From the NCBI GenBank assembly GCA_021846045.1, contig JAJZCM010000001.1, positions 54,457 to 118,456 on the forward strand: 64,000 nucleotides of DNA, read 5' to 3'. Positions 7,252 to 58,448 of this stretch are shown piece by piece. How positions within the stretch are numbered: position 1 is the first letter of the stretch; each line of letters starts with the position of its first letter. Under the pieces are notes generated by a model that had not been told where the DNA came from, did no database searches, and worked only from the letters and a program-made list of their open reading frames with translations. The stretch is from a bacterium (GTDB lineage: Bacteria > Elusimicrobiota > Elusimicrobia > UBA1565 > UBA9628). A program made the translations under genes and the position numbers.

Positions 7252-7343
7252 GTAACTACTCACGTCACCCCGACGAAAGTCGGGGTCCAGTTTCATGAAA
7301 CACCGGATTCCGGCTTTCGCCGGAATGACGAACCTGAGCGGTT
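7252..7343 (+). repeat. RPE/MITE-like double-hairpin dispersed repeat, copy 1
   Basis: Sequence GTAACTACTCACGTCACCCCGACGAAAGTCGGGGTCCAG...GGATTCCGGCTTTCGCCGGAATGACGAACCTGAGC. The same ~90-nt unit recurs at 31711, 39392, 45691, 45889, 54707 and 57294. Confidence 0.85.
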
Positions 7344-12130: not shown

Positions 12131-12256
12131 TATTGGCGCCTCCCGCCTTCGCCTTATAAATGTAATCCCATCCCCGCGTCCTGTCAAGGGCCTTTTTAAT
12201 TTTTTACTAATTTTTTACTTTTCAAGTGGGGCTGAGAATTTGTAACTTTACAACAC

Positions 12257-31710: not shown

Positions 31711-31772
31711 GCTCCGGAATCCAGAAGATCGCTGCTCTGGACCCCGACTTTCATCGGGGTGACGTGAGTTGT
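31711..31772 (-). repeat. degenerate/partial copy of the double-hairpin repeat family
   Basis: CCCCGACTTTCATCGGGGTGACGTGAGTTGT (reverse orientation, stem with a C-to-T change) plus a CCGGAATCCAG remnant. Confidence 0.6.
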
Positions 31773-31773
31773 T

Positions 31774-32712
31774 ATGGAAAAAATTGACATGGAACAAGTC
31801 TCTTCTGTAACTTTGGAGGAATTGCCCTGCAATTTGTGCGGTTCCAGAGAGAGCGCCGTTTTATACCAGCGGCCTTATCTGACTCCGCATGACCAGAAAG
31901 TCGGAGCTTTTGCCGCGACGACCGATGAATTTCTCAATTACGGACGCATTGTTTCTTGCTTAAAATGCGGTTTGTGTTATACCAATCCCCGTCCCACGGC
32001 CGAGGCCATTCTTTCCGGCTATGGAAATTACGTGGATGAAAGCTATCTTTTGGAAAGCTCAAGCCGTTCAATTAACGCCCATTTGAGCCTTAATACCATT
32101 CGGCGGTTCACTTCAACGGGCAAGCTCCTTGAAGTCGGTTCTTCCGTCGGTTATTTTCTCAACGCGGCCCGAACCGATTTTGAAGTGACGGGCCTGGAGC
32201 CTTCCCGTTGGGCCGCCGAAGAGGCGCGGAGAAGATTTAAAGTCGAATGTTATCCCGAATCGCTCGAAAACCCAAGCAGCATCCAGGGAAGAAGTTTTGA
32301 TGTGGTCGCCATGTCGGATGTCGTTGAGCATCTTCTGGATCCGAAATCGGCGGTTCTCTCTTGTCGAAATTTTTTAAAACCTGGGGGGATTCTCTACCTT
32401 CTGACGCCCGATATCGGAAGCCTTTCGGCCAAGTTGATGCGCGGCTATTGGTGGGGGCTTCGTCCCGCCCATATTTATTATTTTTCAAGACAAACGATGA
32501 CGCAAATGCTCATGGGAAACGGGTTTGAAATATTGACCATTAAATCCTTCGGGCGAATTTTCTCCTATTCCTATTGGCTGAGCCGGTTGAAGAACTACCC
32601 AAAATCAGTTTTCCTTACGGTTGGCGGGGTAATCAAAGCCCTTGGCCTTGAAAATAAGCTGGTCTATATTGATACACGGGATTCAATGGAAATATGCGCG
32701 AGAAAAAGGTAA
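31774..32712 (+). CDS. class I SAM-dependent methyltransferase with N-terminal C4 zinc ribbon
   Basis: CNLCGS...CLKCGLC, then LEVGSSVGYF (motif I) and VVAMSDVVEHLLDP. Confidence 0.75.
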   Translation: MEKIDMEQVSSVTLEELPCNLCGSRESAVLYQRPYLTPHDQKVGAFAATTDEFLNYGRIVSCLKCGLCYTNPRPTAEAILSGYGNYVDESYLLESSSRSINAHLSLNTIRRFTSTGKLLEVGSSVGYFLNAARTDFEVTGLEPSRWAAEEARRRFKVECYPESLENPSSIQGRSFDVVAMSDVVEHLLDPKSAVLSCRNFLKPGGILYLLTPDIGSLSAKLMRGYWWGLRPAHIYYFSRQTMTQMLMGNGFEILTIKSFGRIFSYSYWLSRLKNYPKSVFLTVGGVIKALGLENKLVYIDTRDSMEICARKR

Positions 32713-35720: not shown

Positions 35721-35939
35721 GTGGAAAAACCTCAGGAATTGCTTTTTGTTATAGAAGAATCGCCTGGAGGAGGCTATATCGCCTCGGCCCTTGGCCCAAG
35801 CATTGTTACTGAAGCCGATGATTGGGAGTCGCTTAAAAAACGGATATCCGATGCGGTTTTGTGCCATTTTGAAGATCCGGCATTTCGCCCTCGCATCATT
35901 CGGCTTCATGCGGTCAAGGATGAGTTTTTGGCTTTATGA
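35721..35939 (+). CDS. hicB: HicB-family antitoxin (UPF0150-like, short form)
   Basis: LLFVIEESPGGGYIASALGPSIVTEADDWESLKKRISDAVLCHFED matches the HicB N-terminal RNase-H-like fold pattern. 4-nt overlap with the downstream hicA. Confidence 0.55.
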   Translation: MEKPQELLFVIEESPGGGYIASALGPSIVTEADDWESLKKRISDAVLCHFEDPAFRPRIIRLHAVKDEFLAL

Positions 35940-36178
35940 GGCTTCCCCGCGATATTGGGGGAGAGGAACTGGCCCGCCTGCTTATTCGCTATGGTTACAT
36001 GGTGACCCGCCAAACTGGCAGCCATATTCGACTAACAACTCAGCGAGAGGGAGAGCATCATCTGACGATTCCAGCGCATACTGATCTTCGTTTAGGGACG
36101 CTTAATTCTATCCTCCAAGAAGTGTCTCGGCATATCAAGAAAGATAAGAACGACTTAATTCAAGAATTATGGCCGTGA
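35936..36178 (+). CDS. hicA: HicA-family mRNA interferase toxin
   Basis: GYMVTRQTGSHIRLT...HLTIPAH.DLRLGTLNSILQ fits the YcfA/HicA dsRBD-like motif set (GSH, P.H, GTL..IL). Confidence 0.65.
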   Translation: MRLPRDIGGEELARLLIRYGYMVTRQTGSHIRLTTQREGEHHLTIPAHTDLRLGTLNSILQEVSRHIKKDKNDLIQELWP

Positions 36179-38872: not shown

Positions 38873-39487
38873 ATGGACAGAGACGGTGTGATTATTAAAG
38901 AAGTAAATTACCTCTCGCGCCTTGAGGATATGAAAATTATCTCCGGAGTTGCGGATTCGATCGCGAAACTGAGAAAAGCGGGCTTTAAGATGATAGTTAT
39001 CAGCAATCAGTCGGCCGTCGCTCGCGGACGCCTGAGCCTTTTTAAACTTCATAAAATTACGCGCGTTTTACTCCAAATGATTCGGGAAAAAAATTCCAAG
39101 GCTTGCATTGACGCCGTTTACTATTGTCCGCATCATCCTGATTTCGGCAAACCCTGCTCTTGCCGGAAACCCGGGATTGGGCTTCTCCTTAAAGCGCAAA
39201 AAAAATTCAACATTGATTTGAAATCCTCCTATTTTGTCGGAGACTCAAGCGCCGATATCCTAACGGCTCGGCGGGCAGGATGCGTTCCTCTGCTGGTGAA
39301 AACGGGGAAAGGTGGAAAAGACGGACTCTACAAGGCAAAGCCGAAAAAAATATTTAAAAACCTTTCCGAGGCTTCCCGCTGGATTTTAACTGCTCAGGTT
39401 CGTCATTCCGGCGAAAGCCGGAATCCAGTTGGAAACCTGGACCCCGACTTTCGTCGGGGTGACGTGAGTAGTTGCGCTGGATTTTAA
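38873..39487 (+). CDS. gmhB: D-glycero-D-manno-heptose 1,7-bisphosphate phosphatase (HAD-IIIA)
   Basis: FMDRDGVI (DxD), ISNQS, YYCPHHPDFGKPCSCRKP (Zn-binding Cys cluster), FVGDSSAD. The last ~28 codons and the stop codon come from the repeat element (AQVRHSGESRNP...). Confidence 0.8.
   Translation: MDRDGVIIKEVNYLSRLEDMKIISGVADSIAKLRKAGFKMIVISNQSAVARGRLSLFKLHKITRVLLQMIREKNSKACIDAVYYCPHHPDFGKPCSCRKPGIGLLLKAQKKFNIDLKSSYFVGDSSADILTARRAGCVPLLVKTGKGGKDGLYKAKPKKIFKNLSEASRWILTAQVRHSGESRNPVGNLDPDFRRGDVSSCAGF
39392..39475 (-). repeat. double-hairpin dispersed repeat copy (reverse orientation)
   Basis: GTTCGTCATTCCGGCGAAAGCCGGAATCC...TGGACCCCGACTTTCGTCGGGGTGACGTGAGTAGTTGC. Confidence 0.85.
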
Positions 39488-45849: not shown

Positions 45850-47670
45850 ATGCCTGTCTTTAATCTTAAAGTATTTAATAAAAAGTCGGTAACTACTCAC
45901 GTCACCCCGACGAAAGTCGGGGTCCAGAGCAGCAATTTTCTGGATTCCGGCTTTCGCCGGAATGACGAACCTGGGCAGTTACAAAAGTCGTTTTGTATTG
46001 TAGTTGTTTTCCTTATTGCCTGGGGGTTGCGTGTTCTGGGCGTTCGATGGGGGCTTCCCAATATTTTTAACGGCGATGAGCCGCATTTTCTTAATCTCGC
46101 GGTTTCCTTTGGGCGCGGCTCTTTAAAGCCCTATGCTTTTAAATATCCGACTCTTTGGCCGTATTTTTTGTTTGTGTGTTATGGATTTTACTTTCTCTTT
46201 TGGTCTGGACTCGGGCTCTTGCATGGGATTACGGCTTTTGCCGGACTTTACGCTTGGCATCCGACGGGATTTTATCTCATCGCCCGCTTGGCGGCCGGTC
46301 TTCTTTCCATGGCCGCCGTTTTTGTCCTTTATCAAACGGGGAAAGAAGTAGAGGAGTTTTCCTGGGCATGGGTTTTTGCCGCTTTCGCTCCGCTTCTTAT
46401 TTATTCGGCTCACGAGGCGAAAGCCGACAGCCTGATGTTTTTCTTAATTTGTCTAGGCTGGCATTCGGCGGTGAAATTCTTTAAATCAGGGATGAGGAAA
46501 GATCATTTTTTTTCCGCCTTCTTTTTCGGGCTTGCGTTTTCAAGCCAGTTTACCGCTCTTCCGGCTTTAAGCGCGCTACTGGCTTTGGACTTTATTTCTC
46601 CAAAAAATACGCCTATAATCTGGGCCTTGGAGTCCGTTGGGATTTTTTCTCTGGCGTTTGTCTTGGGTTCTCCCTACGCAGTTTTTGATTTTCATAATTT
46701 CTGGTTCTGGATCCATATGCACAATCCCGAGGCGATGAACTCTCTTCGCTTTTGGACGAGACTAAGCGTGGCCAAGCGCCTCGGGCTCAATTTGCTGGGC
46801 TTTGAAGGATTTAATTGGGGGGCGGGGATTTTGGCTCTTTGGGGGCTTATTTCGTTTTTCTATCTTGATTTTAAGATGGCTTTGTTTCTTTTGTTTCCGG
46901 TTGCGCTTTCTTTCCTTGTCTTGGTTAATAATCCCGATGGAGGAGTTCCAAGATACTTGACTTCTGTTTTCCCGGCGCTTGATTTTATGGCCTCAGCGGG
47001 AATATTTTTCTTGTTAAAGGGAAAAAATCGGGCTTGGAAAACGATCATGGGCGGGCTAATCGCATCTTTTATTTTTTTCCCAGCTATTCTCAATGCTTGG
47101 AAGCGGGATAGGTTCATGAGACTTCCGGATACTCGAATGGAGGCGGAAAATTGGATATCAAAAAACATTCCCCAGGGGTCGGTTATTTTGGCTGATGAGC
47201 CCGATACCGAACCGAGGCTTTTAATGAATAAAGAAGAAGTGACGGCTTTGGCCGAGCGTACGAAACAGAATGGATCGCCCCGAAGTCGTCTTTATTTTGC
47301 CATGGCCCAAACTCATCCTGGGGGGGGGTATTGGGTTTACCGCATCAAGCGCTCTTCTTGGGATTTAGACATTTTCTTTACGGGGGAGGCGGATCTCTCG
47401 CAGAAAGATTCTCCCATGCTGAATATTTCCAAAGGGGTTGAGAGCGCCCGAGAGGCGGGAGTTCAATACGTCATCACTTCAAGTCAAGGCGTCAATCTAA
47501 AAAGAGCCATTGAGTTGCGAAATTTTTTTGATCAGCTGGGGTCAAAGGCTATTTTGCTTAAAGAATTTGATCCGGTCGCCGGGAAAACCGCCGGCCCGGT
47601 TCTCAAGGTATACCGGTTACCTGAGGCCCCAAATGGGGTGCCATTGCGGAATGAGCCGCGCCTCTTTTAA
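45850..47670 (+). CDS. GT-C membrane glycosyltransferase (ArnT/PMT-like)
   Basis: WGLPNIFNGDEPHF N-terminal loop and more than 10 TM helices. The ATG at 45850 reads through the repeat element in frame ([13 protein letters not shown]...); the true start may lie downstream of the element. Confidence 0.65.
   Translation: MPVFNLKVFNKKSVTTHVTPTKVGVQSSNFLDSGFRRNDEPGQLQKSFCIVVVFLIAWGLRVLGVRWGLPNIFNGDEPHFLNLAVSFGRGSLKPYAFKYPTLWPYFLFVCYGFYFLFWSGLGLLHGITAFAGLYAWHPTGFYLIARLAAGLLSMAAVFVLYQTGKEVEEFSWAWVFAAFAPLLIYSAHEAKADSLMFFLICLGWHSAVKFFKSGMRKDHFFSAFFFGLAFSSQFTALPALSALLALDFISPKNTPIIWALESVGIFSLAFVLGSPYAVFDFHNFWFWIHMHNPEAMNSLRFWTRLSVAKRLGLNLLGFEGFNWGAGILALWGLISFFYLDFKMALFLLFPVALSFLVLVNNPDGGVPRYLTSVFPALDFMASAGIFFLLKGKNRAWKTIMGGLIASFIFFPAILNAWKRDRFMRLPDTRMEAENWISKNIPQGSVILADEPDTEPRLLMNKEEVTALAERTKQNGSPRSRLYFAMAQTHPGGGYWVYRIKRSSWDLDIFFTGEADLSQKDSPMLNISKGVESAREAGVQYVITSSQGVNLKRAIELRNFFDQLGSKAILLKEFDPVAGKTAGPVLKVYRLPEAPNGVPLRNEPRLF
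45889..45982 (+). repeat. double-hairpin dispersed repeat copy
   Basis: GTAACTACTCACGTCACCCCGACGAAAGTCGGGGTCCAGAGCAGCAATTTTCTGGATTCCGGCTTTCGCCGGAATGACGAACCTGGGCAGTTAC. Confidence 0.85.
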
Positions 47671-48336
47671 GAGAGATTGGGCTTGCCTGAGAAATTTAAT
47701 CGCCAAGGCCGGTTTAATTGTCCTGACCTCCCTGATGGGAGTTGCGGGTTGAAGGATGAGCGGAATATCAGGAGAGCTTTCTTGTAAAATGCGGATGACT
47801 TGTCTCCACTCCGCTTCGGTCGTCTTATCGGTCAAAATGACCTTGACAAAAGATTTTTTAGGAATCAACCGCAAAAATTCCAAGTGTTCCGACCAAAGTT
47901 CTCTTCCAGTTGATGACGGCAGTTTGATGTCCATTGCAACGATATCGCAGAGGTCCCGGACTTGTTTAAAGGCCTCGACGCGCGTTCCGTTGGTTTCCAA
48001 GTAATTTAAAAGACCTTCTTTCCTGACCCAAGGCATGACGCTTAAAAGAAAAGGGACATGGAGCAAAGGCTCTCCGCCCGTCCAGGAGAGGGATCTGTGG
48101 TTTTTCTCGCTTTTGAGCCGAGACACCTCCGAATGAAACTGATTTAACTCCATGACTTCTCCGGAGGGAATCGGAATTGTCCTCGGCTCGTCGCAATAAT
48201 CGCAGTGGAGATTGCATCCCCCAAAACGCACGAAGATTTGCCTTTCTCCAAGATAGATTCCTTCACCTTGAAGGGAAGAAAAGATTTCGACGATTCGAGC
48301 TGAAGCGGAATTTGAAAGATTGATTGAGCCGGACAT
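47617..48336 (-). CDS. queE: 7-carboxy-7-deazaguanine synthase (radical SAM)
   Basis: FVRFGGCNLHCDYCDEP (CxxxCxxC) and the QueE-type N-terminus IVEIFSSLQGEG. Confidence 0.85.
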   Translation of the reverse strand: MSGSINLSNSASARIVEIFSSLQGEGIYLGERQIFVRFGGCNLHCDYCDEPRTIPIPSGEVMELNQFHSEVSRLKSEKNHRSLSWTGGEPLLHVPFLLSVMPWVRKEGLLNYLETNGTRVEAFKQVRDLCDIVAMDIKLPSSTGRELWSEHLEFLRLIPKKSFVKVILTDKTTEAEWRQVIRILQESSPDIPLILQPATPIREVRTIKPALAIKFLRQAQSLLKEARLIPQWHPIWGLR

Positions 48337-48338
48337 TT

Positions 48339-49010
48339 TTAAAGAGCGGGATCTTTTATTTTAGCGATCAAAAAACCCTTGGCCCTTAGTTTGCAGGAAT
48401 CGCACTGTCCGCAGGGGTGTTTTTTTCCAGCGTAGCAAGACCAGGTGAGCTTCAGGGGGACATTAAGATTAAGAGCCAGACGCACGATTTGTTCTTTGTC
48501 GAGATGAAGAAGAGGCGACAATATCTTAATCGGGCTTCCCATGACGCCGCTCTTCGTCCCAAGGCGGGCCAAGCGCTCAAAAGCGTTGAGATAAGCGGGG
48601 CGGCAGTCGGGGTATCCGCTGTAATCAAGAGCGTTGGCTCCGATGACGATGGCTTGCGCCCCAATGGCGTCAGCCAAAGATAGAGCCAAAGATAAAAAAA
48701 CGGTGTTCCGACCTGGAACATAGGTAGACGGAATAGGCCCGCGGCCTATTTTTGAAAGAGGCAAATTCGGCAATTTTTTAGTTTTGTCAGCGAGCGAACT
48801 TGCTTTAAGCCAGGATAAATTCAAGCGAATTTGATGGGTTTTGATTTTCGCTTGTCTAGCCACGGCACGCGCCGAAATTAATTCGCGTTGATGCCGTTGT
48901 CCGTAGAAAATAGACAACCCTTGGCAGTCATAGCCTCGCGCTTTGGCCCAGTAAAGGGCAGTTGAGGAATCAAGTCCTCCGGATAATAGAACGACGGCTT
49001 TCTTTTTCAT
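48339..49010 (-). CDS. queC: 7-cyano-7-deazaguanine synthase
   Basis: KAVVLLSGGLDSST PP-loop and the C-terminal Zn site CGQCDSC. Start at MKKKAVV gives a TGATG overlap with the upstream exonuclease gene. Confidence 0.85.
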   Translation of the reverse strand: MKKKAVVLLSGGLDSSTALYWAKARGYDCQGLSIFYGQRHQRELISARAVARQAKIKTHQIRLNLSWLKASSLADKTKKLPNLPLSKIGRGPIPSTYVPGRNTVFLSLALSLADAIGAQAIVIGANALDYSGYPDCRPAYLNAFERLARLGTKSGVMGSPIKILSPLLHLDKEQIVRLALNLNVPLKLTWSCYAGKKHPCGQCDSCKLRAKGFLIAKIKDPAL

Positions 49011-49597
49011 CACCGCGTGGAAGGATTTTTGAATTCCCGGCAAAATTTATCAAGTTCAGTCGGGTCCTTGGAAAGATTTTCATAGCGCTTTGTTTGGGCC
49101 CAGAATACTTCCCAAGCGGCTCGGACGTCCTCGTCAGCCCTATGCGCCCCATCCAAATTTTTTCCGCAGTAAAATTGGTAGGCGGCCGACAAATTTCGGC
49201 GTTCCATTCTTCGGAAAATGACCAGGGCATCAATGAAATTTCTTCCATCCATGAAAAAGGGAATTTCCGCGCGGTTAAATTCCGTTTGGAGAATGGGGAT
49301 GTCGAATTGGATGATGCCGTATCCTCCGATATCGGCTGTTCCAATAAAATCGCGGATTTGAGTGCCGATTTCCTTGAAAGTCGGGGCGTCTTTTACCATG
49401 TCGTTGGAGATGTGGTGAATGCGAAAAGACGGCTCGGGAATAAAGGTTTCCGGATTAATAAAAGACGAGAACGATTTTTCAACGCCGTTGGTCTCCATTT
49501 TGATCATGGATATCTCAATAATGCGGTCGGTGGCGGTTGAAAGCCCAGTGCTCTCGATATCCATGAAAACCAAGGGTCTTTTTTGATTTTTCAGCAT
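49010..49597 (-). CDS. DEDDh 3'-5' exonuclease (DnaQ/RNase T-like)
   Basis: Exo I FMDIESTG, Exo II HHISNDMV, Exo III GAHRADEDVRAA. Confidence 0.75.
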   Translation of the reverse strand: MLKNQKRPLVFMDIESTGLSTATDRIIEISMIKMETNGVEKSFSSFINPETFIPEPSFRIHHISNDMVKDAPTFKEIGTQIRDFIGTADIGGYGIIQFDIPILQTEFNRAEIPFFMDGRNFIDALVIFRRMERRNLSAAYQFYCGKNLDGAHRADEDVRAAWEVFWAQTKRYENLSKDPTELDKFCREFKNPSTR

Positions 49598-50913
49598 AGG
49601 GCCAGTTTTTCCGCGCATTTCTTTCCATCCATGATCGCTTCTTCCATGAAAGAATATTTCCAGGCGCCGTAACGCCCGATTGACTCCACTTCGTTTTTTG
49701 CGAGGAATGGAAATAGTGTGTTCAAGGCTTTTGTTCTCTTAAAATCATAAACGACATATCCGCATTTGATCGGCAACCACTCTTTGATGATTACCCGATT
49801 GTCAGACCTTAATATTTTACAATCCCTGAGAGCCTTTAGCGCGAGAGATTCCATATGGGATAAGCGAACCTTAGTTTTTGAGTCTCTTGAAAATTCAACA
49901 TACAGAGAACTTGAACCCGCAGGCGCGTTGGAGGAAGCGAATTGATTGTAAAACCCAACCCGGTAGAAGGGATATTTTTTTTCAGGAAAATAAATCCAGT
50001 GTTTTCCCGGCATGAGGTTTCCGGAAACGCCGAGGTTGAGGCAATAAACGGAATTAGAGGACAAATTTTCGGCCGCGCTTAGAACGCGGGCGGGAGTTTC
50101 CTTGCAAAGAGAAATAAAATCAGTCAATGGAACGGTGTTAACCAAGCGTTTAAAAGAAACTATTCCCAGGTTTTTAACGAGCGCCTCTTTTGTCTTTAAA
50201 TTAATCCAGATGGCTTCACTGCTCAAAAGCAACTGGTTTTTCTTGAGGCGTTGGGATAAGGCGTTCGGCAGAGATTGAATGCCGCCTTGTCTAGGGTAGA
50301 CAAACGAGGCGTTGTATCCAAAAGCCTTCGTTTGGTCCATCAGAGCTCCATAGAGGACTTCGGAAACCTTGGGCGCGGGCACAAAACGGCCTTGCCATTC
50401 CGTCGTCATGGTCGAAAGTTTTCTTTGCCAAAGTTTTTCATTGTAGGGAAACAGGAAATGTTTGCAGATTCCATCTCCAAAAGTCCGAAGCGCCCAATCC
50501 TTGAAAGAGACCTGCGTGGTTTTTCTCGCAGTCTTAGTGGGGCGGTGGACGGTTTTAAGAAATCCAAGGAGACACTCGTCAATCACGGAATCCGGAAGGC
50601 CGTAGGTGTTGGCTTGGAAGGGGTAGCGCGTCAAAACCTCATGCGAATAAATCCAAGAACTGCGCTTAATCTCGCGCAAATTACCTTTTAGTAAGTCTTG
50701 GATCAGTTTTTTCCCATAGGGATCGTGAAGATGGAGAAGGTGCCCAGTAAAATCGAAGGTAAACCCTTTTCTAAATATCGAAGAGGCGGCGCCGCCGGGA
50801 TATTTTTCTTTTTCGACTATTAAGGCCGAAAGCCCTGAATTTTTATTAAGGTGATAGGCGGTCGATAGTCCGGCAAGGCCGCCGCCTAAAATTAAGACAT
50901 CGGTTTTAATCAT
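49591..50913 (-). CDS. FAD-dependent oxidoreductase (amine-oxidase fold; UDP-galactopyranose-mutase-like C-terminus)
   Basis: VLILGGGLAGLSTAY dinucleotide-binding motif. The C-terminal GRYGAWKYSFMEEAI resembles the Glf C-terminal GRLAEYKYYDMHQ. Confidence 0.6.
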   Translation of the reverse strand: MIKTDVLILGGGLAGLSTAYHLNKNSGLSALIVEKEKYPGGAASSIFRKGFTFDFTGHLLHLHDPYGKKLIQDLLKGNLREIKRSSWIYSHEVLTRYPFQANTYGLPDSVIDECLLGFLKTVHRPTKTARKTTQVSFKDWALRTFGDGICKHFLFPYNEKLWQRKLSTMTTEWQGRFVPAPKVSEVLYGALMDQTKAFGYNASFVYPRQGGIQSLPNALSQRLKKNQLLLSSEAIWINLKTKEALVKNLGIVSFKRLVNTVPLTDFISLCKETPARVLSAAENLSSNSVYCLNLGVSGNLMPGKHWIYFPEKKYPFYRVGFYNQFASSNAPAGSSSLYVEFSRDSKTKVRLSHMESLALKALRDCKILRSDNRVIIKEWLPIKCGYVVYDFKRTKALNTLFPFLAKNEVESIGRYGAWKYSFMEEAIMDGKKCAEKLALC

Positions 50914-51952
50914 CGTAAATTACGACGTGGGCAAGCATGCGGCTTAGGAGTAAAAGGGGAACAATTAATATTCCGTAGAGAATGATCGCGCCCATCAGAT
51001 GGATTTGCGTCGCTAGGAAACCGAAAAATCCAAGGAAAGCCGCTATTGCCGCCGCAATGAGAACGACTTGAAGACGGGAATACCCCATTTTTTCCAAGCG
51101 CAAGGCGAAGTGGTCTTTGGAGCCCATGAAAGGCGATTTTCCCTTCATCAGCCGAAGAACCATGACAAACAGCGTGTCATACATGGGGACGAGTAAAATT
51201 AAAATAGGCGCGTAGACTCCGGCCGGGTTGATGTCGGAATAGCGGGTTCCCAAAGAAACGCAGGCAAGCAAAAAGCCCAGAAGGAGGCTTCCGGAATCGC
51301 CCATAAAAATTTTTCTTTTTTTTGAAAAATTCCAGGGCAAAAAACCGAGGGCCGCGCCGGCGAGCGCGGCGGAGGCGAAGTTGACGTAGAGTTCTTCCGA
51401 CGGAAGGGAAATAAGAAGAAATCCCATCGCGGCTATCGCCGCCTGGCTTGCGCAGAGGCCGTCCATGATATCAATGATGTTGAGCGCATTAGTGATTCCG
51501 ACAATCCAAAGGAGCGTCAAAAACGCGGCGACGTAGTTGGGGGAAATAAAGCGAATGCGAATGCCGTTAAATAAAACAATCGAGGCGGCCGCGAACTCAA
51601 TTAAGAATTTAACGCGGTAATCGAGGCCTTTAGGCTTGTTGATGTCGTCAAAAATCCCGCAGGCGAAAATCATGCTTCCACCGATGAGAAGGGCTCTCAG
51701 GCTGTGCAGAGTTCCAGTGGGAAATCGCGTCCAAAAACGAAGAAAAATCAAGGTTAGCGAGTAGGCGATGTAAAGAGCGATTCCACCTACGACCGGAGTC
51801 GCGACTTTATGAGTTTTGATGGGAGAAGACGGGCGATCGACCCATCCCAAGGCCAAGGCGATTTTTCGAGCCAGCGGAGTTAAGGCGAAAGATAAAAAAA
51901 AGGATGAAAAGACCGCAATCGCGTAGAGGCGCCAGTTGTCAATTTTTATCAT
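50906..51952 (-). CDS. polyprenyl-phosphate N-acetylhexosamine-1-phosphate transferase (MraY/WecA family, GT4)
   Basis: Polytopic, with the NALNIIDIMDGL motif characteristic of MraY/WecA. Confidence 0.8.
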   Translation of the reverse strand: MIKIDNWRLYAIAVFSSFFLSFALTPLARKIALALGWVDRPSSPIKTHKVATPVVGGIALYIAYSLTLIFLRFWTRFPTGTLHSLRALLIGGSMIFACGIFDDINKPKGLDYRVKFLIEFAAASIVLFNGIRIRFISPNYVAAFLTLLWIVGITNALNIIDIMDGLCASQAAIAAMGFLLISLPSEELYVNFASAALAGAALGFLPWNFSKKRKIFMGDSGSLLLGFLLACVSLGTRYSDINPAGVYAPILILLVPMYDTLFVMVLRLMKGKSPFMGSKDHFALRLEKMGYSRLQVVLIAAAIAAFLGFFGFLATQIHLMGAIILYGILIVPLLLLSRMLAHVVIYDD

Positions 51953-53980
51953 TTAGGGTTCATTAAGGGAAAAAAGCATGCAGCCGCTAGAACGGTAAAG
52001 AAGGGGGGATTTTTTAAGAAGGTCTCTGAGGCGGATTTTGCCTTGCGGAGACAACTTTCCCAAGGAATCTCCCAGGCGAATCATTTCTTGCGGAACCCAT
52101 AAAATTTCAGTGATTCCTTGCCGCTTAAGATGCGCGGCAAGTTCTTTCTCGCTAGAGGCGAGGTTTGAGTCGTCAATGAAAAAGTTCGGCGAGAAAATGG
52201 ATGAGGCGATGGAACCCGCCGGAGCGTAATAGCTGCGCTCTTCACCCATAATCAGAATCTTATCATTTCGCTTCGCCTGCTCAGCGGCGTAATGCGCGCA
52301 GGGGTAATAAAGGAGTTTTTGAGACAGATAGTCCGTTCTGGTTTTCAGTCCCAGCAAGGTTTCTCCTCCATTAAAAACCCCGAAATTAACAAAGAGAAAT
52401 AAAAGCAAATGCGTCAAAATAATCAAAGAGATTGCCGAAGTTAAAATAATTTGTGTTGAACGGTCCAGACGTTCCTTGAGTTTGAGAAGCGCGTTTCCGG
52501 CCAACAGACAGAGAAGAGGGCAAAGAGCGATTAAAAATCTCAAAACAACGCCGGTCAAAAACCAAATCAGGATATAAACTAAAGAAAATACGACTAAGCG
52601 CTTTAAAAAAAGATTCTTTCTGGAAGCCCAAACGGCCAAAGGCAGGGACCAGAATAAAATTTCCCAACCAAGTCCGCCCAAGACGTCCATTCCGCGCCCG
52701 AAATGAAGGCTGTTGGTTAAAAGCATCACGGGAAAATCAGCCCAGCGCCGGTAGTTAAGCCCGCTGCGGTATTCGGCAAGGGCGTTGAAATAATTATGAG
52801 CGATTTCTTTATTCCATCCGATTTGTGAGGCCTTAAAGAAAGGGTTAAAGAACGGAAAAAAGGGATTGCCGACTTCTATCCAATTTTTGAGCATCCAAGG
52901 GGAGAAGAGAATCGTCACGATTGCGGTAAATAGCGCCGCGTCTTTGAGCGCTTCCTTCCTTGATTCCGATGGAAAAAAAACGCGGCTCCACAAGGTCATT
53001 CCTAAAATTCCCGCCGTAATCCCCGCGTAGTATTTGGTTCCCAAGGCCAGCCCGCAAAACACGGCCGACAAAATCAGCCAAGCCTTGGAACCTGAGGAAG
53101 TCGAGCGTATTTCTTCCCAGCGAAGAAATGAGAGGACCGAAGCCGTAGTCCACAACATCACCAAGGGTTCAACGTAAGAAGAGGCGGATAAAAGCATTGC
53201 CGAGCTTTGCGTAACAAGTAAAAGAATCGACAACATGACCGCTTTGATGGGAATTTCAAGCTGGGCGATTTCAAAAATCCACCAGGCGCTCAGAAAAAGC
53301 GAAACCCACATGAACATTTGAGCGAGAATGTCCGATTTAAACAGCAGCGATAAGGTAAACAGCATCTCGCCGTTTTGTGGGAAATGGCTGTAGAGAAGCC
53401 AAGGCAGTTTGACCAGCCCATGGGCTTGAACATAGGCGGCGGCTAAAGGTAAATGATAGACCAAGGAATCATACTGATGTGGGGGAATTAAACAGCACCA
53501 AAGAACGAGCAGAAGGGCGAAAAAAACGATCAGGGATTCAAAAGGGTTGCCGGTCAGAATTTTTTTCGGGGAATTAAATGCGCGAAAAAGGGCTTTTAAT
53601 TCCGCAAATCCCAGAATCCAAAGAATGGAGAGAAGTAAAGTCAGGGTGAGGGGGGTCAGATAATGAATGGCGGCAAGAAAAAAAACGCTCAGGCTTAAAA
53701 TTCCCAGTCCTAATGTCGCGCCGATCAAGGTTTTTTGCGAGGGGCTGATATCAGAAAAACCAAGCAAGGTAACTATCAGGCGCCCGGCTCCCGAAGCGGC
53801 CGATAAGATGAGTAACAGTTCCATGAAAGCTGCAAATCCAGGGAAAAAGGGAAATAAAAAATAGGAGCCGAACGTATAAAGGGAGAAAAAGAGCGTTGCA
53901 AGGGCTGCGCCGAAAAAAAATAATTTTCCGTCTTCGGTCATCTCAAAGCTTCTGGGCTTTTGGGCTGGGGGGAGAGCCAT
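51953..53980 (-). CDS. large polytopic membrane protein, probable GT-C fold glycosyltransferase
   Basis: About 14 TM helices, the early loop [17 protein letters not shown], and a C-terminal soluble domain. The family assignment is tentative. Confidence 0.5.
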
Positions 53981-54696
53981 TTGAAGTGAACAAGCCCCAG
54001 ACGATGGGGAATGTATTGAGAGATAATTTTGAGCGTGGAAAGTCCGTAGATTACGCTTCTTTTAAAATTAATGGAGGAGGCTTCGGGAAAGTATCTTGCG
54101 GCCACGGGAATATCTCCAATTTTAAGGTGGCAGGCCGCGGCCTGAAGCAAAAACTCCTGGTCAAAGACGAAATCGTCGGAATTGTCCTGCCAGCGGATTG
54201 TTTCAAGGCATTTCCGGGAATAGGCCCTTAAGCCTGAATGCCATTCCCCTAAGTTTTGACCCGTGCAGGTGTTTTCAAGAATGGTGAGGAAACGGTTGAA
54301 GACATATTTATACAAGGGCATTCCGCCCTCCAGCGCTTCCCACCGGGTTCTGATGCGGTTTCCCAAAACGACGTCGCAGATTCCGTTTTTAATGAGAGAA
54401 ATCATGATGGGCGCCAGTCTTGCGTCATATTGATAGTCCGGATGAATCATGATGACGACATCGGCCCCGCGTTTAAGAGCTTCTAGGTAGCAAGTCTTTT
54501 GATTGCCGCCATAGCCCTTGTTTTTTTCATGGACGATGGTGGTTAGCCCCAGTTTTTTTGAAAGGGCGGCGGTGCCGTCTTTGGAGCAATCATCCACCAG
54601 AATAATCTCGTCTACGCTTCCTAGCGGGATGTCAAAAACGGTCTTTTCCAAGGTCTTTTCCGCGTTGTAAGCGGGTAAAACCGCGATCGTTTTCAT
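53938..54696 (-). CDS. GT2 glycosyltransferase, DPM1/ArnC-like
   Basis: [24 protein letters not shown], and a DXD region. Confidence 0.8.
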
Positions 54697-54706
54697 GATT
54701 TTTGTT

Positions 54707-54798
54707 AACCACTCACGTCACCCCGACGAAAGTCGGGGTCCAGAGCAACAATTTTCTGGATTCCGGCTTTCGCCGGAATGACGAACCTGAGCAGTTAT
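54707..54798 (+). repeat. double-hairpin dispersed repeat copy in a divergent promoter region
   Basis: ACCACTCACGTCACCCCGACGAAAGTCGGGGTCCAGAGCAACAATTTTCTGGATTCCGGCTTTCGCCGGAATGACGAACCTGAGCAGTTATG. Confidence 0.85.
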
Positions 54799-54911: not shown

Positions 54912-56204
54912 ATGTCTATGGGATTACCTCAGGATTGGGAAAGAATAGGGCTAGGAGGGGTTGAATCCATTAATAATTTGGATACGGCTCGCATGACCTT
55001 GCGTTGGGCGCTTGAACGCTTAAGAGCTCTAGAAGAAAAAAATAACGCTTTTGAAAAGAAAACCAAGGAATTTGGGGATATCAAGGAAAAGATTGATGAA
55101 GAGAGAAGCGCCCTCAAACGCGCCTTATCCGTCCGCGAGGAAGAAGAAAAGTGGCGAGATGATTATTATCAGCGGCTCAGACAAAGAATTCAGAGTTTAG
55201 TCTCAGAGAAACTCTCGGGAAATTCAAACGCCGTTTCCATTGCTTCCCGAGAGTTGGAATTGGCGAGGCTTGAAGAAGAAAACCATCAGCGGCGTCTGGC
55301 CTTGGAGAAAGAATATTCGGTCAAGATGAGATCTGGTCAGGCGGAATATGAACGCCTTAAAGCGTCGTTGGATTCTCAGGCTAAGAATCAAGCCGAACAG
55401 TGGGAAAAGGCGGAAGCGGAGCGCCAAATTCGTTTTAACGAATTCATGACGCAACAGCGAGGGCTGTTGGAAATGCAAAGCCGGCAAGTGGAAGCAGAGT
55501 CGGCGCGCGTGGCGTCTTGGAGAATGGATCAAGCGTCCGCATCGTGGGCGGTGGAAAAAGAGAGTCTTCTCAAAGAGATTGCGCAATTGAAGGAAAAGGA
55601 AGGAGATTTACGCCGCAAGCTGCATGCGGAAGGGCTTGCCTTGGATAGCGCGAGAGAAGAGGCGCTCAATATTTCAAGATCCAGCGAAATTCGCCTTCGG
55701 CACATAGAGGAAGAACAAAAGGTCTTCGATAGGGAACAAGAGACGATCAAGGCCGAAGCCAATCTATGGCGGCTTAAATCCGGGGAAGGATGGTCTTCGC
55801 TCGCGGAGATTAAAAAAAAGTGCGTTGAGCTTGAAAATCAGCTTAAAGAGTCTCAGACCCTTTGCTCGGAAGAAGCGGCTAAAAGAAAGGCGGCCGAGGA
55901 AAGATTTCAGGTTTATGAACGGAGTTGGTCGAAAAGGCAAACAGATTTAGATCTTATTGAGGAATCTCTTCTTAAGAAATTTAAAGACCTGGAAGATGAG
56001 GTGTCCCGCAGGGACCGCGTTTGGAAAGACCGTGAAGATTTCATGCGTAAACGCGATCAAAACTGGCATAATCGTATAGAAGAATGGCAGTCGATGATGC
56101 AGGAAAAGTCCGAGGGCGTAGAAAAGCTCAGGTCTGAACTGCTCGAAGCCGTTCGAGGCTATATCAAGAGAAAAAAAGGGGAAGAACATGGAAATGGAGA
56201 ATAG
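54912..56204 (+). CDS. long coiled-coil protein (E/K/R-rich)
   Basis: A heptad-rich charged sequence runs through the protein, with no enzymatic motif. Confidence 0.55.
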   Translation: MSMGLPQDWERIGLGGVESINNLDTARMTLRWALERLRALEEKNNAFEKKTKEFGDIKEKIDEERSALKRALSVREEEEKWRDDYYQRLRQRIQSLVSEKLSGNSNAVSIASRELELARLEEENHQRRLALEKEYSVKMRSGQAEYERLKASLDSQAKNQAEQWEKAEAERQIRFNEFMTQQRGLLEMQSRQVEAESARVASWRMDQASASWAVEKESLLKEIAQLKEKEGDLRRKLHAEGLALDSAREEALNISRSSEIRLRHIEEEQKVFDREQETIKAEANLWRLKSGEGWSSLAEIKKKCVELENQLKESQTLCSEEAAKRKAAEERFQVYERSWSKRQTDLDLIEESLLKKFKDLEDEVSRRDRVWKDREDFMRKRDQNWHNRIEEWQSMMQEKSEGVEKLRSELLEAVRGYIKRKKGEEHGNGE

Positions 56205-57045
56205 GGTCAATTCGGAGGGGTTTGAGAATCCTCATCAGAGACTTGACGAGATATGGACTAGGCTCAGCGAGGTTTGTCGGAAGCTCTGGCAAGAAGATTC
56301 TCCTGCCGCAGTGGGTCTTGAGGCCATTGTCGAGGAATTTAAAGGCGAGGTCCGGCGTTTAGGACAGGCCTTGGCCGCATCCCAGAAAACTCTTTCGGAG
56401 CAAAAATACATGCTCTCAAAAGAGTTCAACGAGTTTTTCTCCGATCAAATTCTGGAACTAAAATCCCAGATTAGCCGCGGTTCGGTCCGCATTTCGGCTC
56501 TTGAGAAAACATTGGCCAGCCGCGACGCGGAAATCGGCAATCTCCTGAAGGCCTTGGCGGATAAGGAGGCGGAGAACGTCAAGTTTCACGATGAGTATCT
56601 CAAAGCCGCTTCCCAATCCGATGAAATGCAGGCTCGGAAAATGGAGGTTTTTTACCAAGAACTTAAAAATAAGGAATCCGAGCTTGAAAAGACTTGGGAA
56701 AATAGAAAAAAAGCGCTGGAAGAAGATCATCGTCAGCACATTGAATCTCTTCAGAAGAAAGAAAGCGCTCTTGAAGGAAAGTTTTCCCAGAGGGAAAAAG
56801 AGCTTCGAGAATTCCAGGAGCGTTTGATGCAGGAGCGCATGACTTGGGAATCGCAGACTCTCCAGCAGCGTGAGATATTCAATAAGAGAGAAGAAGATCT
56901 GAAGAAGCAAAGCCAAGACCTATTAAGCGAATACAAGATAAAGCAGGACGAGTTGCAGCGCATCAAGGATGGCATGAAGTCGGAAATCGTGGAACTTGTC
57001 CGTCAGTACCAGGCGAGGCTTAAGGCGCAGTCGGCTGTAAGCTAG
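56188..57045 (+). CDS. coiled-coil protein
   Basis: Charged heptad-rich sequence. Overlaps the upstream gene by 17 nt. Confidence 0.55.
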   Translation: MEMENRVNSEGFENPHQRLDEIWTRLSEVCRKLWQEDSPAAVGLEAIVEEFKGEVRRLGQALAASQKTLSEQKYMLSKEFNEFFSDQILELKSQISRGSVRISALEKTLASRDAEIGNLLKALADKEAENVKFHDEYLKAASQSDEMQARKMEVFYQELKNKESELEKTWENRKKALEEDHRQHIESLQKKESALEGKFSQREKELREFQERLMQERMTWESQTLQQREIFNKREEDLKKQSQDLLSEYKIKQDELQRIKDGMKSEIVELVRQYQARLKAQSAVS

Positions 57046-57107
57046 TTTTGGGCGGAGCTGGAGAAAAACTCCGGCTCCGCTTTCCGTTTAATTCGAGAAT
57101 TTGCCCA

Positions 57108-58448
57108 ATGGAAAAAAAATCCGCCGAAGAAGCCGCTTTGGCCGGGCTTGAGGAGATTAAAAAAGAATATTACTCCCGCTTGGACTCTATTGATTTGAGT
57201 TTTTCGAGTCTCAAGGAAAATAAGTCTTCCCGCGATTACTTCTCGGATATCTTGACGGAGGAACCTCCAAGTTTATTGGAGATTCCTCCGGTCGTAACTA
57301 CTCACGTCACCCCGACGAAAGTCGGGGTCCAGAGCAACAATTTTCTGGATTCCGGCTTTCGGCCGCTTTCCAACGAACTTGGAAGCGGCGCTTCCTCCCC
57401 AATGCTCGGTCGCCGGAATGACGAACCTGAGCAGTTACCGCCGGTTAAAGAAATAATCCCGCCAAAACCTAAAGTCAATTTTTTCCCCGAATTTACGGAT
57501 GAGCCGGTTAGCGCCGCGGGTGAAAATAAGAATGAGGAAACCCAGTCTTCATTCATTATGAATGCGCCGGTGGAGAAGGAAACGCCTTTAGCCCAGGCGG
57601 ACGCGATTGCCACGCGCTTGGAAAATCTCCCCGTCTTGGGGCGCTCTTTCTCATTTTACAGTTTGCTTGTCTCTGGGGCGCTTCTTGTTGGCGCTATCTC
57701 TTGGGTGGGCTGGAATGCGTGGTCATCCTCATGGAAATCTTCTCTTCCTTTTGGCGAGCCGGTTGGCCTTGCCGCTGTTGGGGACAATCTGGCGTCTTTG
57801 GATCCCGCTGATAATCTTATTTATACCCTCAAAGGCTCTTCAGGAAAACCGCTAGGAAAATATCCTTTCGTTTGCGATCATGCTTCAGGGTTTGCCGGCT
57901 TTCAAAACGAGTTTTGGTGTTCAGAAGCTGACAAAGGCGATGTTCGGCGTTATTTCTTGGTCAATGGAAATGAGTATGAACTTCAGAGGGTTTATAAGAC
58001 TTTTGGAACCAAAATTGGAGCGCTCTATTCGGATGGAAATTATTTATGGGGCGCGGATGCGACTAGCGGGAAAATTTTTCAGTATTTAATTGTTAAGGCC
58101 CTGACGGGGATTCTTTTAACGCCCATTGACCGTTTTACCCTTCCCGATATTTCCCCGGCAGGACTTTATGCGTCTAATGGAATTTTATGGGTTTTAGACG
58201 CCAAAAGCAGGAGAATCAAGCGCTTTAAAATCTCGGTTTCAAAAGCGGAGCCCATTGATTCTTATGATCTAAACCAAAAGATAAAAGCGCTTGGCGCTCT
58301 TGCGGGGCTGTCCGTTAATGGGGAAAGAGTTTATATTCTAACCCGCCATCCCTCCAGAATTTTCAGCTTCGATCTTAAAAATTTGCCTCATCGCCGGTCG
58401 CCGATACATTTCCCAAGGGCGCCCGCGACGCTCGGCCTTCGGCCTTGA
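57108..58448 (+). CDS. membrane-anchored protein with C-terminal beta-propeller-like (NHL/SMP-30-like) domain; carries an in-frame repeat-element insertion
   Basis: Disordered N-terminus, one TM helix (FSFYSLLVSGALLVGAISWVGW), and C-terminal repeated strand motifs (LYASNGILWVLD, VNGERVYILT). The element at 57294-57439 is translated in the sense orientation. Confidence 0.5.
   Translation: MEKKSAEEAALAGLEEIKKEYYSRLDSIDLSFSSLKENKSSRDYFSDILTEEPPSLLEIPPVVTTHVTPTKVGVQSNNFLDSGFRPLSNELGSGASSPMLGRRNDEPEQLPPVKEIIPPKPKVNFFPEFTDEPVSAAGENKNEETQSSFIMNAPVEKETPLAQADAIATRLENLPVLGRSFSFYSLLVSGALLVGAISWVGWNAWSSSWKSSLPFGEPVGLAAVGDNLASLDPADNLIYTLKGSSGKPLGKYPFVCDHASGFAGFQNEFWCSEADKGDVRRYFLVNGNEYELQRVYKTFGTKIGALYSDGNYLWGADATSGKIFQYLIVKALTGILLTPIDRFTLPDISPAGLYASNGILWVLDAKSRRIKRFKISVSKAEPIDSYDLNQKIKALGALAGLSVNGERVYILTRHPSRIFSFDLKNLPHRRSPIHFPRAPATLGLRP
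57294..57439 (+). repeat. double-hairpin repeat copy with a nested 51-nt palindromic insertion inside stem-loop 2, within a CDS
   Basis: ...GGATTCCGGCTTTCG[GCCGCTTTCCAACGAACTTGGAAGCGGCG...CTCGGT]CGCCGGAATGACGAACCTGAGCAGTTAC. The insertion is itself an inverted repeat (GCCGCTTTCCAA / TTGGAAGCGGC). Confidence 0.85.

Follow-up and report, generated by a model that had tools for sequence, protein, structure and literature searches.

A DEDDh exonuclease gene followed by queC and queE has been identified at the 3' end of a seven-gene operon in the metagenome-assembled genome of an uncultured Elusimicrobiota bacterium, and the same three genes recur at every Elusimicrobiota locus compared. The queC and queE genes are probably ordinary genes of preQ0 (7-cyano-7-deazaguanine) synthesis residing in a lineage-specific operon of mixed function, which in this genome is fused to an envelope-glycosylation operon; we place the probability of this reading at about 0.62. 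It draws on the gene identities, catalytic motifs and junctions and on the distribution of the linkage among genomes. If it is right, what looks like a seven-gene operon is a pair of adjacent modules that became joined in a single subclade.

Organisation of the operon

The operon occupies positions 47617-54696 on the minus strand of the window, by which is meant the whole 64-kb stretch of DNA analysed. The seven genes, in order of transcription, and the features that flank them are listed below.

54706..54797, no strand assigned: copy of a dispersed double-hairpin repeat of about 92 nt (repeat family D1, inverted partners I2-I13), lying immediately 5' of the operon in the divergent intergenic region
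53938..54696, minus strand: GT2 glycosyltransferase of the Dpm1/AglJ/PpgS-like polyprenyl-phosphate sugar synthase type, heading the run (PF00535, 63.5 bits)
51953..53980, minus strand: GT-C-like polytopic membrane glycosyltransferase, PMT/DUF8201 (partial match to PF02366 PMT, 32 bits)
50906..51952, minus strand: WecA/MraY-family polyprenyl-phosphate sugar-1-phosphate transferase, GT4 Pfam family (PF00953, 109.6 bits)
49591..50913, minus strand: FAD/NAD(P)-binding oxidoreductase of the amine-oxidase superfamily, PRK07208-like (PF01593 and PF13450)
49010..49618, minus strand: DEDDh 3'-5' exonuclease, DnaQ/ExoX-like (PF00929, 84 bits)
48339..49010, minus strand: QueC, predicted preQ0 synthase (PF06508, 241 bits; TIGR00364, 211 bits)
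47617..48336, minus strand: QueE-type radical-SAM enzyme, predicted 7-carboxy-7-deazaguanine synthase, closing the run (PF04055 and PF13353)
45850..47670, plus strand: convergent ORF for a PMT_2-like membrane protein, forming the 3' boundary of the operon (PF13231, a weak match of 20 bits)

All seven open reading frames are found at these coordinates and their ends mostly overlap or abut. The stop codon of the exonuclease gene and the start codon of queC overlap in TGATG, as read in the sequence. The gene calls of the source contig give a 4-nt overlap between the GT2 and GT-C genes, abutting ends between GT-C and GT4, an 8-nt overlap between GT4 and the FAD enzyme, and a 2-nt gap between queC and queE. 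The FAD enzyme and exonuclease genes overlap by 7 or 28 nt, depending on the choice of ATG; the true start of the exonuclease is likely to be the ATG at 49597 (MLKNQK...). The called start of the GT-C gene on the source contig is at about 53941, which gives a protein of 662 aa. The seven genes look like one transcription unit, in which they would be co-transcribed. The family matches and junctions bear out the gene identifications, the minus-strand operon layout and the TGATG junction given in an earlier note on this DNA.

The best NCBIfam matches of the GT2 protein are AglJ, dolichyl-phosphate hexose transferase and PpgS, all below cutoff, and its orthologs (71-91% identity) occupy the same position in all the Elusimicrobiota loci examined. 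The GT-C protein further matches the LIC_10190 family (49 bits, below cutoff) and, on the precomputed call, PF26626 (DUF8201). The WecA-like transferase scores 114.6 bits against TIGR02380 (WecA), below the cutoff of 326, and the flavoenzyme scores 138 bits against NF005548, also below cutoff. The latter had been described as Glf-like. Its FAD/NAD-binding character stands, but the likeness to UDP-galactopyranose mutase is loose (TIGR00031, 24.6 bits against a cutoff of 304).

Identity of QueC and QueE

The QueC protein scores 211.3 bits against TIGR00364, above the equivalog cutoff of 150.3. It has the SGGxDS phosphate-binding loop (SGGLDS at residue 10) and the pocket motifs YGQRHQRE at 36, VPGRN at 98 and YPDC at 133. 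The corresponding signatures YxQxHxxE, VPxRN and YPDC are essential in E. coli QueC, and the C-terminal zinc motif of canonical QueC is C(x)8CxxCxxC with a Tyr following the first Cys (bioRxiv 10.64898/2026.04.08.717055). The four-cysteine zinc motif of the window protein is CYAGKKHPCGQCDSC at 192, in which the first spacing is counted as 7 residues, not 8, as it also is in the QueC of a phage contig (L169). Every canonical signature motif is present in 9 Elusimicrobiota QueC orthologs. By its motifs, the window QueC is predicted to be a canonical small-molecule preQ0 enzyme.

The radical-SAM enzyme encoded next to QueC carries CNLHCDYC at residue 41, the CxxxCxxC motif of the [4Fe-4S] cluster (PF04055, 52 bits). 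Ahead of the cluster motif is EIFSSLQGEG at residue 17, which corresponds to the N-terminal ExFxSxQGEG segment diagnostic of QueE and aligns with INEMFQTLQGEG...CPVGCAWCD of E. coli QueE (6NHL). In a sequence search of the PDB the top three matches are the three solved QueE structures, 6NHL, 5TGS and 4NJG, with PFL activase behind them. Five QueE models of NCBIfam are matched, all below cutoff; the best, TIGR04349, reaches 73 bits, short of its equivalog cutoff of 300, and the top three matches are QueE families. QueE subfamilies are known to be very divergent. Homologs with 60-67% identity carry the QueE name in Elusimicrobia, and queC adjoins queE at every locus examined. If the two genes are ordinary preQ0 genes, these Elusimicrobiota radical-SAM proteins deserve the QueE annotation despite scoring under the cutoff of every curated QueE model.

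The pair is like the canonical preQ0/queuosine genes in its full QueC signature, in passing TIGR00364, in the QueE-type N-terminal motif with CxxxCxxC, and in the adjacency of queC and queE. It is unlike them in the DEDDh exonuclease that is its upstream partner, in a QueE subfamily that lies outside every NCBIfam QueE equivalog model, and in having no queD or queF in the operon or in the 74 kb examined. In B. subtilis the genes form a queCDEF operon, and in E. coli queC, queD and queE are scattered. In canonical queC neighbourhoods, queE adjoins queC in 26% and queD is adjacent in only 32.6% (bioRxiv 10.64898/2026.04.08.717055), so the missing adjacent queD is the normal, majority case.

The exonuclease

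The exonuclease retains all the DEDDh residues, with D20, E22, D106, H159 and D164 invariant in a 16-sequence alignment, and its PF00929 score of 84 bits is well above the cutoff of 24. Its AF2 model (pLDDT 90.1) is predicted to have the RNase H-like DnaQ fold, like that of DNA exonucleases; Foldseek aligns it with TM scores of 0.70-0.75 to DinG-exo, DnaQ and Pol III epsilon, with PolC-exo also a top match. In sequence and fold together, the nearest matches are DnaQ, DinG-exo, Pol III epsilon, PolC-exo, TREX1/2, ExoI and ExoX. Neither RNase T nor oligoribonuclease (Orn) is found among the best 50 structural matches of the model.

In its DEDDh residues, fold and size the protein is similar to standalone members of the DnaQ/ExoX family such as Pol III epsilon and ExoX of E. 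coli. It differs from that family in its linkage to queC-queE, seen in Elusimicrobiota only among the cellular genomes sampled. It is also 43-51% identical to Bacteroidota proteins of about 255 aa named DNA polymerase III subunit epsilon. These share an ExoX-like C-terminal domain (PF20600) with Elusimicrobiota relatives. The domain is present in P0010 and in the orthologs at L094 and L095, and it is missing from the window exonuclease and its clade of 78-100% identity. The literature on the ExoX C-terminal domain and MutL yielded nothing usable.

Against the Pol III epsilon models the best score is 109.5 bits (NF004964, cutoff 236) and the protein lies below all the epsilon equivalog cutoffs, which makes a proofreading role at the replicase no more than putative. 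It ends about 20 residues past the exonuclease domain and has no alpha-binding C-terminal tail. The label Pol III epsilon should be regarded as unproven for this exonuclease if our preferred reading is right.

Other genes of queuosine and 7-deazaguanine metabolism

Pfam scans of every non-overlapping window ORF of at least 100 aa, together with inspection of the gaps, found no PTPS/QueD, QueF, TGT or DpdA in the 64-kb window. This confirms the earlier note, which had reported queD, queF and tgt missing from view and QueD not adjacent. The window has no tRNA genes and no Rfam matches, the preQ1 riboswitch included. Past its left end, the next 10 kb is taken up by ribosomal-protein, holA, lptE, leuS and pho genes alone, and queD, queF, tgt, dpdA and a preQ1 riboswitch were all absent there. 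In all, about 74 kb around the operon (the window and this 10 kb) of the 193.8-kb contig was read.

At the related loci, the TGT, DpdA, QueD and QueF Pfam families are listed for no called gene over about 10 kb. No match to PF01702 or other TGT-like families occurs in the window, in the 10 kb beyond it or among the genes tabulated for L001-L013 and L094-L098, and no DpdB or helicase genes were found within about 10 kb at any compared locus.

Conservation of the three genes

The order of exonuclease, queC and queE was compared at 10 distinct Elusimicrobiota loci, the MAGs of the relatives being assigned at phylum level only. All three genes are present at 10/10 of them and adjacent at 9/10, mostly with 4-nt overlaps, and they are kept together down to about 50% identity of the exonuclease and about 60% identity of QueE. 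Conservation of the exonuclease-queC linkage, whose absence from related genomes the earlier note had named as counting against its suggestion, thus holds at all ten loci. The flanks vary, and the gene 3' of queE is different at every distant locus. Of wider interest is the fact that the three-gene unit outlasts extensive local rearrangement across the sampled Elusimicrobiota genomes.

A glycosyltransferase block is located upstream of the three genes at all loci examined. At L094-L098 it is parted from them by differing inserts, which include an Rce1-like gene, opposite-strand ORFs, a Y1 transposase and a C1 peptidase; the opposite-strand ORFs and the transposase imply that the two modules are separate transcription units there. 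A protein with a signal peptide and lipobox heads the three genes at L013, L095, L096 and L098, which argues for an operon of mixed function. This small ORF 5' of the exonuclease in distant relatives had been considered as the missing QueD and was rejected, since it has no Pfam match and carries a signal peptide and lipobox.

Outside the phylum, queC or queE occurs within 10 kb of the orthologous exonuclease in 0/80 genomes, mostly of Bacteroidota, among the matches listed. Of 80 viral contigs with this exonuclease family one, L169, has QueC directly upstream of the exonuclease and a PD-(D/E)XK nuclease downstream; the order queC then exonuclease is the reverse of that in the cellular genomes. 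We found no paper tying queC or queE to a cellular exonuclease, nor anything on queuosine in Elusimicrobia.

Proposed origin and function

The ancestral operon appears to have been lipoprotein, exonuclease, queC and queE, with unrelated housekeeping functions. In Elusimicrobiota, queC and queE follow the gene for a DEDDh DNA exonuclease of the DnaQ/ExoX family in what is probably a short operon with translational coupling. In the subclade of the window, as compared with distant relatives, the lipoprotein gene is absent and the exonuclease lacks its ExoX-like C-terminal domain; both are probably losses, a direction of change that we infer from the present-day arrangements. There the three genes abut the neighbouring envelope-glycosylation operon (GT2, GT-C, WecA-like transferase and FAD enzyme). 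QueE is predicted to convert CPH4 to CDG, and QueC to convert CDG to preQ0, which most likely feeds queuosine in tRNA; a complete pathway to queuosine in tRNA is assumed for this genome. The exonuclease and preQ0 synthesis probably have no functional link.

Alternative roles of the three genes

The exonuclease could be an RNase T-like trimmer of the 3' ends of tRNA or other RNA, which would make the three genes a tRNA-maturation operon sharing a class of substrate with queuosine synthesis. PF00929 takes its name from RNase T and has RNA exonucleases among its members, and both the three genes and their translational coupling are conserved at all Elusimicrobiota loci examined. We nevertheless consider this role unlikely, as the protein most resembles DNA exonucleases in sequence and fold, with RNase T and Orn absent from the best 50, the relatives bear the ExoX-like C-terminal domain, and the orthologs in the 80 other genomes among the matches listed have no link to queC or queE.

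Selection for a functional link would likewise be expected to hold the three genes together while their flanks vary. A real functional partnership in the Elusimicrobiota unit, for instance of the exonuclease with a distal transglycosylase in 7-deazaguanine DNA modification or repair, or through some other connection of the exonuclease with preQ0 metabolism, seems to us rather improbable. If true, it would amount to a chromosomal, housekeeping use of 7-deazaguanine that differs from the Dpd and phage systems already known.

The earlier note had raised a nuclease-associated 7-deazaguanine system, in DNA modification or akin to nucleoside antibiotics, and this finds no positive support, QueC being canonical and TGT or DpdA not being nearby. 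In such a scheme a distal DpdA-like enzyme would insert preQ0 into DNA and the exonuclease would process or proofread the modified DNA. In keeping with it, conserved translational coupling joins preQ0 synthesis to an exonuclease of the DNA type, and the L169 contig indicates that QueC and the exonuclease can be paired in a DNA-metabolism context. Known Dpd and phage clusters (DpdA with FolE, QueD, QueE and QueC) are similar in placing QueC and QueE beside DNA-metabolism enzymes, and in L169 QueC adjoins this very exonuclease family. Unlike these clusters, the window neighbourhood lacks a DpdA/TGT-like transglycosylase, DpdB, QueD and FolE, and its context is conserved and chromosomal, with no mobile or defence island.

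We judge this scheme very improbable. TGT/DpdA, DpdB and helicase genes are missing within about 10 kb at every locus, QueC has the features of the canonical small-molecule enzyme, and the synteny is stable and chromosomal beside housekeeping genes, unlike a defence island. A lipoprotein gene belongs to the operon of the relatives; in the distant ones it stands first in the operon, with the glycosyltransferase block as a unit of its own. The exonuclease ortholog is without nearby queC or queE in 80/80 genomes, mostly Bacteroidota, among the matches listed, and PADLOC reports no component specific to Dpd, Qat or CBASS-IV.

Membership of a defence system was also considered and rejected, because the PADLOC matches (DEDDh, QueC and viperin-like radical-SAM) are all generic. 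QatC of QatABCD and Cap9 of type IV CBASS share the PF06508 fold with the window QueC. QatC, however, is devoid of YxQxHxxE, VPxRN and YPDC, all three of which are present here; the window has no QatA, QatB, QatD or Cap10 partners, and the PADLOC match of QueC is to the generic QueC model only.

The co-transcribed glycosyltransferases might instead build preQ0 into an envelope glycoconjugate or make a 7-deazapurine nucleoside from it. This would be in line with the single overlapping run of seven genes in the window's subclade and with the glycosyltransferase block upstream at all loci examined. It is highly implausible, since the modules are parted by unrelated genes into separate transcription units at L094-L098, lipid-carrier glycosyltransferases (Dpm1-like GT2, GT-C, WecA-like) are typical of envelope glycans and not of nucleoside tailoring, and such genes abound throughout the window independently of queC and queE.

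Boundaries of the operon

The 3' end of queE overlaps the convergent PMT_2-like ORF by 54 nt, and this ORF is found at the same place in the loci L001, L007, L011 and L012. Its start is probably over-extended, because a repeat copy sits in its 5' end. A scan for promoters and terminators did not outperform shuffled sequences: promoter-like sites numbered 4, where shuffling predicts 8.1, and terminator-like sites 14, where it predicts 13.2.

Organisation of the seven-gene run

Seven consecutive ORFs, identified by ORF calls and by Pfam and NCBIfam matches, fill positions 47617-54696 of the window on the minus strand.

Genes of the run, listed in order of transcription
53938-54696, minus: GT2 glycosyltransferase (PF00535; among named models, closest to polyprenyl-phosphate sugar synthases)
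51953-53980, minus: GT-C-like polytopic membrane protein (matches PMT in part; LIC_10190 family)
50906-51952, minus: WecA/MraY-family transferase (PF00953)
49591-50913, minus: FAD/NAD-binding protein of the amine-oxidase superfamily (PRK07208-like)
49010-49618, minus: DEDDh exonuclease (PF00929)
48339-49010, minus: QueC (TIGR00364, 211 bits, cutoff 150)
47617-48336, minus: QueE-like radical-SAM protein (top matches are QueE families)

The gene order and tight junctions described in the earlier note are confirmed by these identities and by the junction sequences. The genes overlap or nearly overlap; TGATG combines the stop of the exonuclease with the start of queC, and the FAD gene terminates inside the exonuclease ORF, at its 5' end. 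The exonuclease start best supported by homologs is the ATG at 49597 (MLKNQK...). The gene families named earlier are right; the label 'Glf-like' for the FAD enzyme is loose, the match to UDP-galactopyranose mutase reaching only 24.6 bits. A scan of the run for consensus promoters and terminators performed no better than on shuffled sequence, which leaves the junctions as the ground for inferring co-transcription. The operon is bounded at its 5' side by a divergent intergenic region of 215 nt holding a dispersed repeat and at its 3' side by a convergent PMT_2-like ORF, which overlaps queE by 54 nt.

QueC, QueE and the exonuclease

The QueC protein has all the expected motifs, namely SGGxDS, YxQxHxxE, VPxRN, YPDC and the four-cysteine zinc motif, tyrosine included. 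Nine orthologs from other Elusimicrobiota also have this canonical signature in full; it was established by experiments in E. coli (bioRxiv 10.64898/2026.04.08.717055). A QatC-, Cap9- or LarE-type derivative is rejected as the identity of this protein.

The radical-SAM protein matches five NCBIfam QueE models, in each case with a score far under the cutoff (73 bits against 300). It is accepted as a QueE of an unmodelled subfamily on the basis of its EIFSSLQGEG segment and CxxxCxxC cluster, of a PDB search in which the three solved QueEs rank best with pyruvate formate-lyase activase behind them, and of the adjacency of queE to queC in every locus examined. Its homologs of 60-67% identity are all from MAGs named Elusimicrobia or Elusimicrobiota and are named QueE at NCBI. 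The exonuclease, QueE and the other proteins are matched exactly on the 193.8-kb contig DAHZHZ010000002.1 of MAG GCA_027401925.1.

The catalytic residues D20, E22, D106, H159 and D164 are kept in the exonuclease, whose predicted structure is confident (pLDDT 90). The best matches are DNA exonucleases, with the exonuclease domain of DinG, DnaQ of S. thermophilus, Pol III epsilon and PolC-exo in front and TREX1/2, ExoI and ExoX after them; the protein falls under the NCBIfam cutoffs for Pol III epsilon. Standalone DnaQ homologs number more than three per bacterial proteome on average, their role being mostly unknown (PMC12926913).

Relatives of the exonuclease have an ExoX-like C-terminal domain (PF20600), which the window protein lacks. 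All six distant Elusimicrobiota loci (L013, L094-L098) encode the form carrying this domain and have mutL 1.5-8 kb downstream of the exonuclease-queC-queE trio, encoded on the other strand; mutS adjoins mutL in those loci that reach far enough. The mutL-mutS pair is found neither in the window nor in the loci read for its domain-less subclade (L001, L007, L011, L012). In E. coli, ExoX belongs to the exonucleases that serve mismatch repair. If anything, this proximity may point to a role of the exonuclease in DNA repair (mismatch repair), unrelated to preQ0.

Conservation of the trio

The earlier note had asked whether the exonuclease co-occurs with queC and queE in other genomes, and exonuclease- and QueE-centred look-ups reveal a linkage conserved within Elusimicrobiota. 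The three genes occur in this order on one strand in L007, L011, L012 and L013 (84%, 80%, 79% and 53% exonuclease identity), and the QueE-centred look-ups gave the identical order in the five loci L094-L098 at 60-66% QueE identity. The junctions are mostly 4-nt overlaps, the only interruption being an epimerase gene between exonuclease and queC in L011. The gene 3' of queE is a different one in each distant locus (M23 peptidase, FAD enzyme, TPR protein, DruA, GT2, acyltransferase). The GT2/GT-C/GT4/FAD block lies upstream of the trio in every locus and is split from it in L094-L098 by varying inserts, which include an Rce1-like protein, opposite-strand ORFs, a Y1 transposase and a C1 peptidase.

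Among the matches listed, none of 80 out-group genomes with an orthologous exonuclease (43-51% identity; mostly Bacteroidota, with a few Lentisphaeria and others) encodes a QueC or QueE homolog 10 kb or less from that gene. In many Chitinophagaceae-type loci (L022, L025, L031, L035, L037, L038, L042, L045, L048, L050 and others) a GT2 gene that is 21-25% identical to the window GT2 starts some 300 nt past the 3' side of the exonuclease match; this adjacency is separate and lineage-specific. Of 80 viral contigs in which this exonuclease family occurs, one (L169:6999-9714; IMG/VR UViG_3300046683_000683) encodes a canonical-motif QueC directly upstream of the DEDDh exonuclease and a PD-(D/E)XK nuclease downstream, and probably represents a phage whose 7-deazaguanine pathway adjoins its recombination/replication module.

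In four of the distant loci a conserved ORF of 118-144 aa shares 4 nt with the start of the exonuclease gene.

Lipoprotein-like ORFs
L013:9603-10004
L095:8136-8570
L096:8186-8542
L098:8202-8588

This ORF has no Pfam match. A signal peptide and an L-[AS]-G-C lipobox identify it as a lipoprotein, and the missing QueD is thereby rejected as its identity. The invariant segments include GYIExGGG and VFDC. The ORF is absent from the subclade of the window.

Search for other queuosine genes

A Pfam scan of all non-overlapping window ORFs of at least 100 aa, with inspection of the leftover gaps, found no QueD/PTPS, QueF, TGT or DpdA in the 64 kb, nor were tRNA genes or matches to Rfam families including preQ1 riboswitches found there. 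The 10 kb past the left end encode rplM, rpsI, rpsT, holA, lptE, leuS and phosphate-transport genes and no Q genes. The earlier remark that queD, queF and tgt are not in view is thus borne out. Canonical queC genes have queD nearby in 32.6% and queE in 26.1% of cases (bioRxiv 10.64898/2026.04.08.717055), so that a queC with no queD beside it is the usual case. The content of the window is that of an ordinary chromosome, with murC, a Ham1 fusion, a MutY-like glycosylase, glgB, malQ, a DnaA-like ATPase, comM, dprA, topA and purA, as well as genes of a heptose-nucleotide pathway and numerous GT2, epimerase and PMT_2 genes.

Possible role of the unit

The seven-gene run is made up of two modules, an envelope-glycosylation module of lipid-carrier enzymes and the small trio unit. 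The ancestral small unit would have comprised lipoprotein, exonuclease, queC and queE; in the subclade of the window the two modules abut, the lipoprotein gene is absent and the exonuclease has no C-terminal domain. The lipoprotein points to a mixed-function operon. We consider that queC and queE make preQ0 as a housekeeping function, with queuosine in tRNA as the presumed destination, and are co-transcribed with a DNA exonuclease through lineage history or co-regulation (probability about 0.6). This is based on the lack of a DNA-modification or defence signal, the lipoprotein in the unit, the normality of queD absence and the commonness of the exonuclease family. That the trio persists while its flanks vary is also what a functional link would give. 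Action of the exonuclease on RNA or tRNA is an unlikely alternative, the best matches of this protein being DNA exonucleases. No sign of a DNA-modification system, raised in the earlier note, or of a defence system was seen: no TGT/DpdA-like gene occurs in any locus examined, PADLOC gives generic matches only and the trio block behaves as stable chromosomal synteny. A part for 7-deazaguanine in DNA that relies on a transglycosylase encoded at a distance is quite improbable. A preQ0-containing glycoconjugate, conceivable beside a glycosylation module, is highly improbable.

No description of a conserved exonuclease-queC-queE unit was found in the literature searched; the unit is an observation on gene order. 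The genes are new members of known families from an uncultured phylum.

Other features of the window

A dispersed repeat of about 92 nt, composed of a pair of GC-rich hairpin modules, CACCCCGACGAAAGTCGGGGTC and GGATTCCGGCTTTCGCCGGAATGAC, is present in six copies in both orientations and looks like a REP/MITE-like element.

Repeat copies, both orientations represented
7253-7344
31714-31781
39369-39476
45890-45981
54706-54797
57295-57386

The copies are intergenic or lie at the 5' ends of long ORFs. The repeat is translated inside ORFs 45850-47670 and 57048-58448, and the starts of both are therefore probably over-called. An exact 63-nt tandem duplication (31552-31677) lies at the 3' end of a PmbA/TldD-like gene (29879-31708), and internal direct repeats of about 420 nt (10269-11117; 93-97% identity) are seen within an unannotated 689-aa ORF (10118-12187). 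Two small overlapping ORFs of 72 and 80 aa (35721-36178) resemble a HicB/HicA-type toxin-antitoxin pair by eye alone. Two successive highly charged ORFs of 430 and 285 aa (54912-57045), coiled-coil-like by eye and with no Pfam match, are divergent from the operon and keep their position in L001 and L007.
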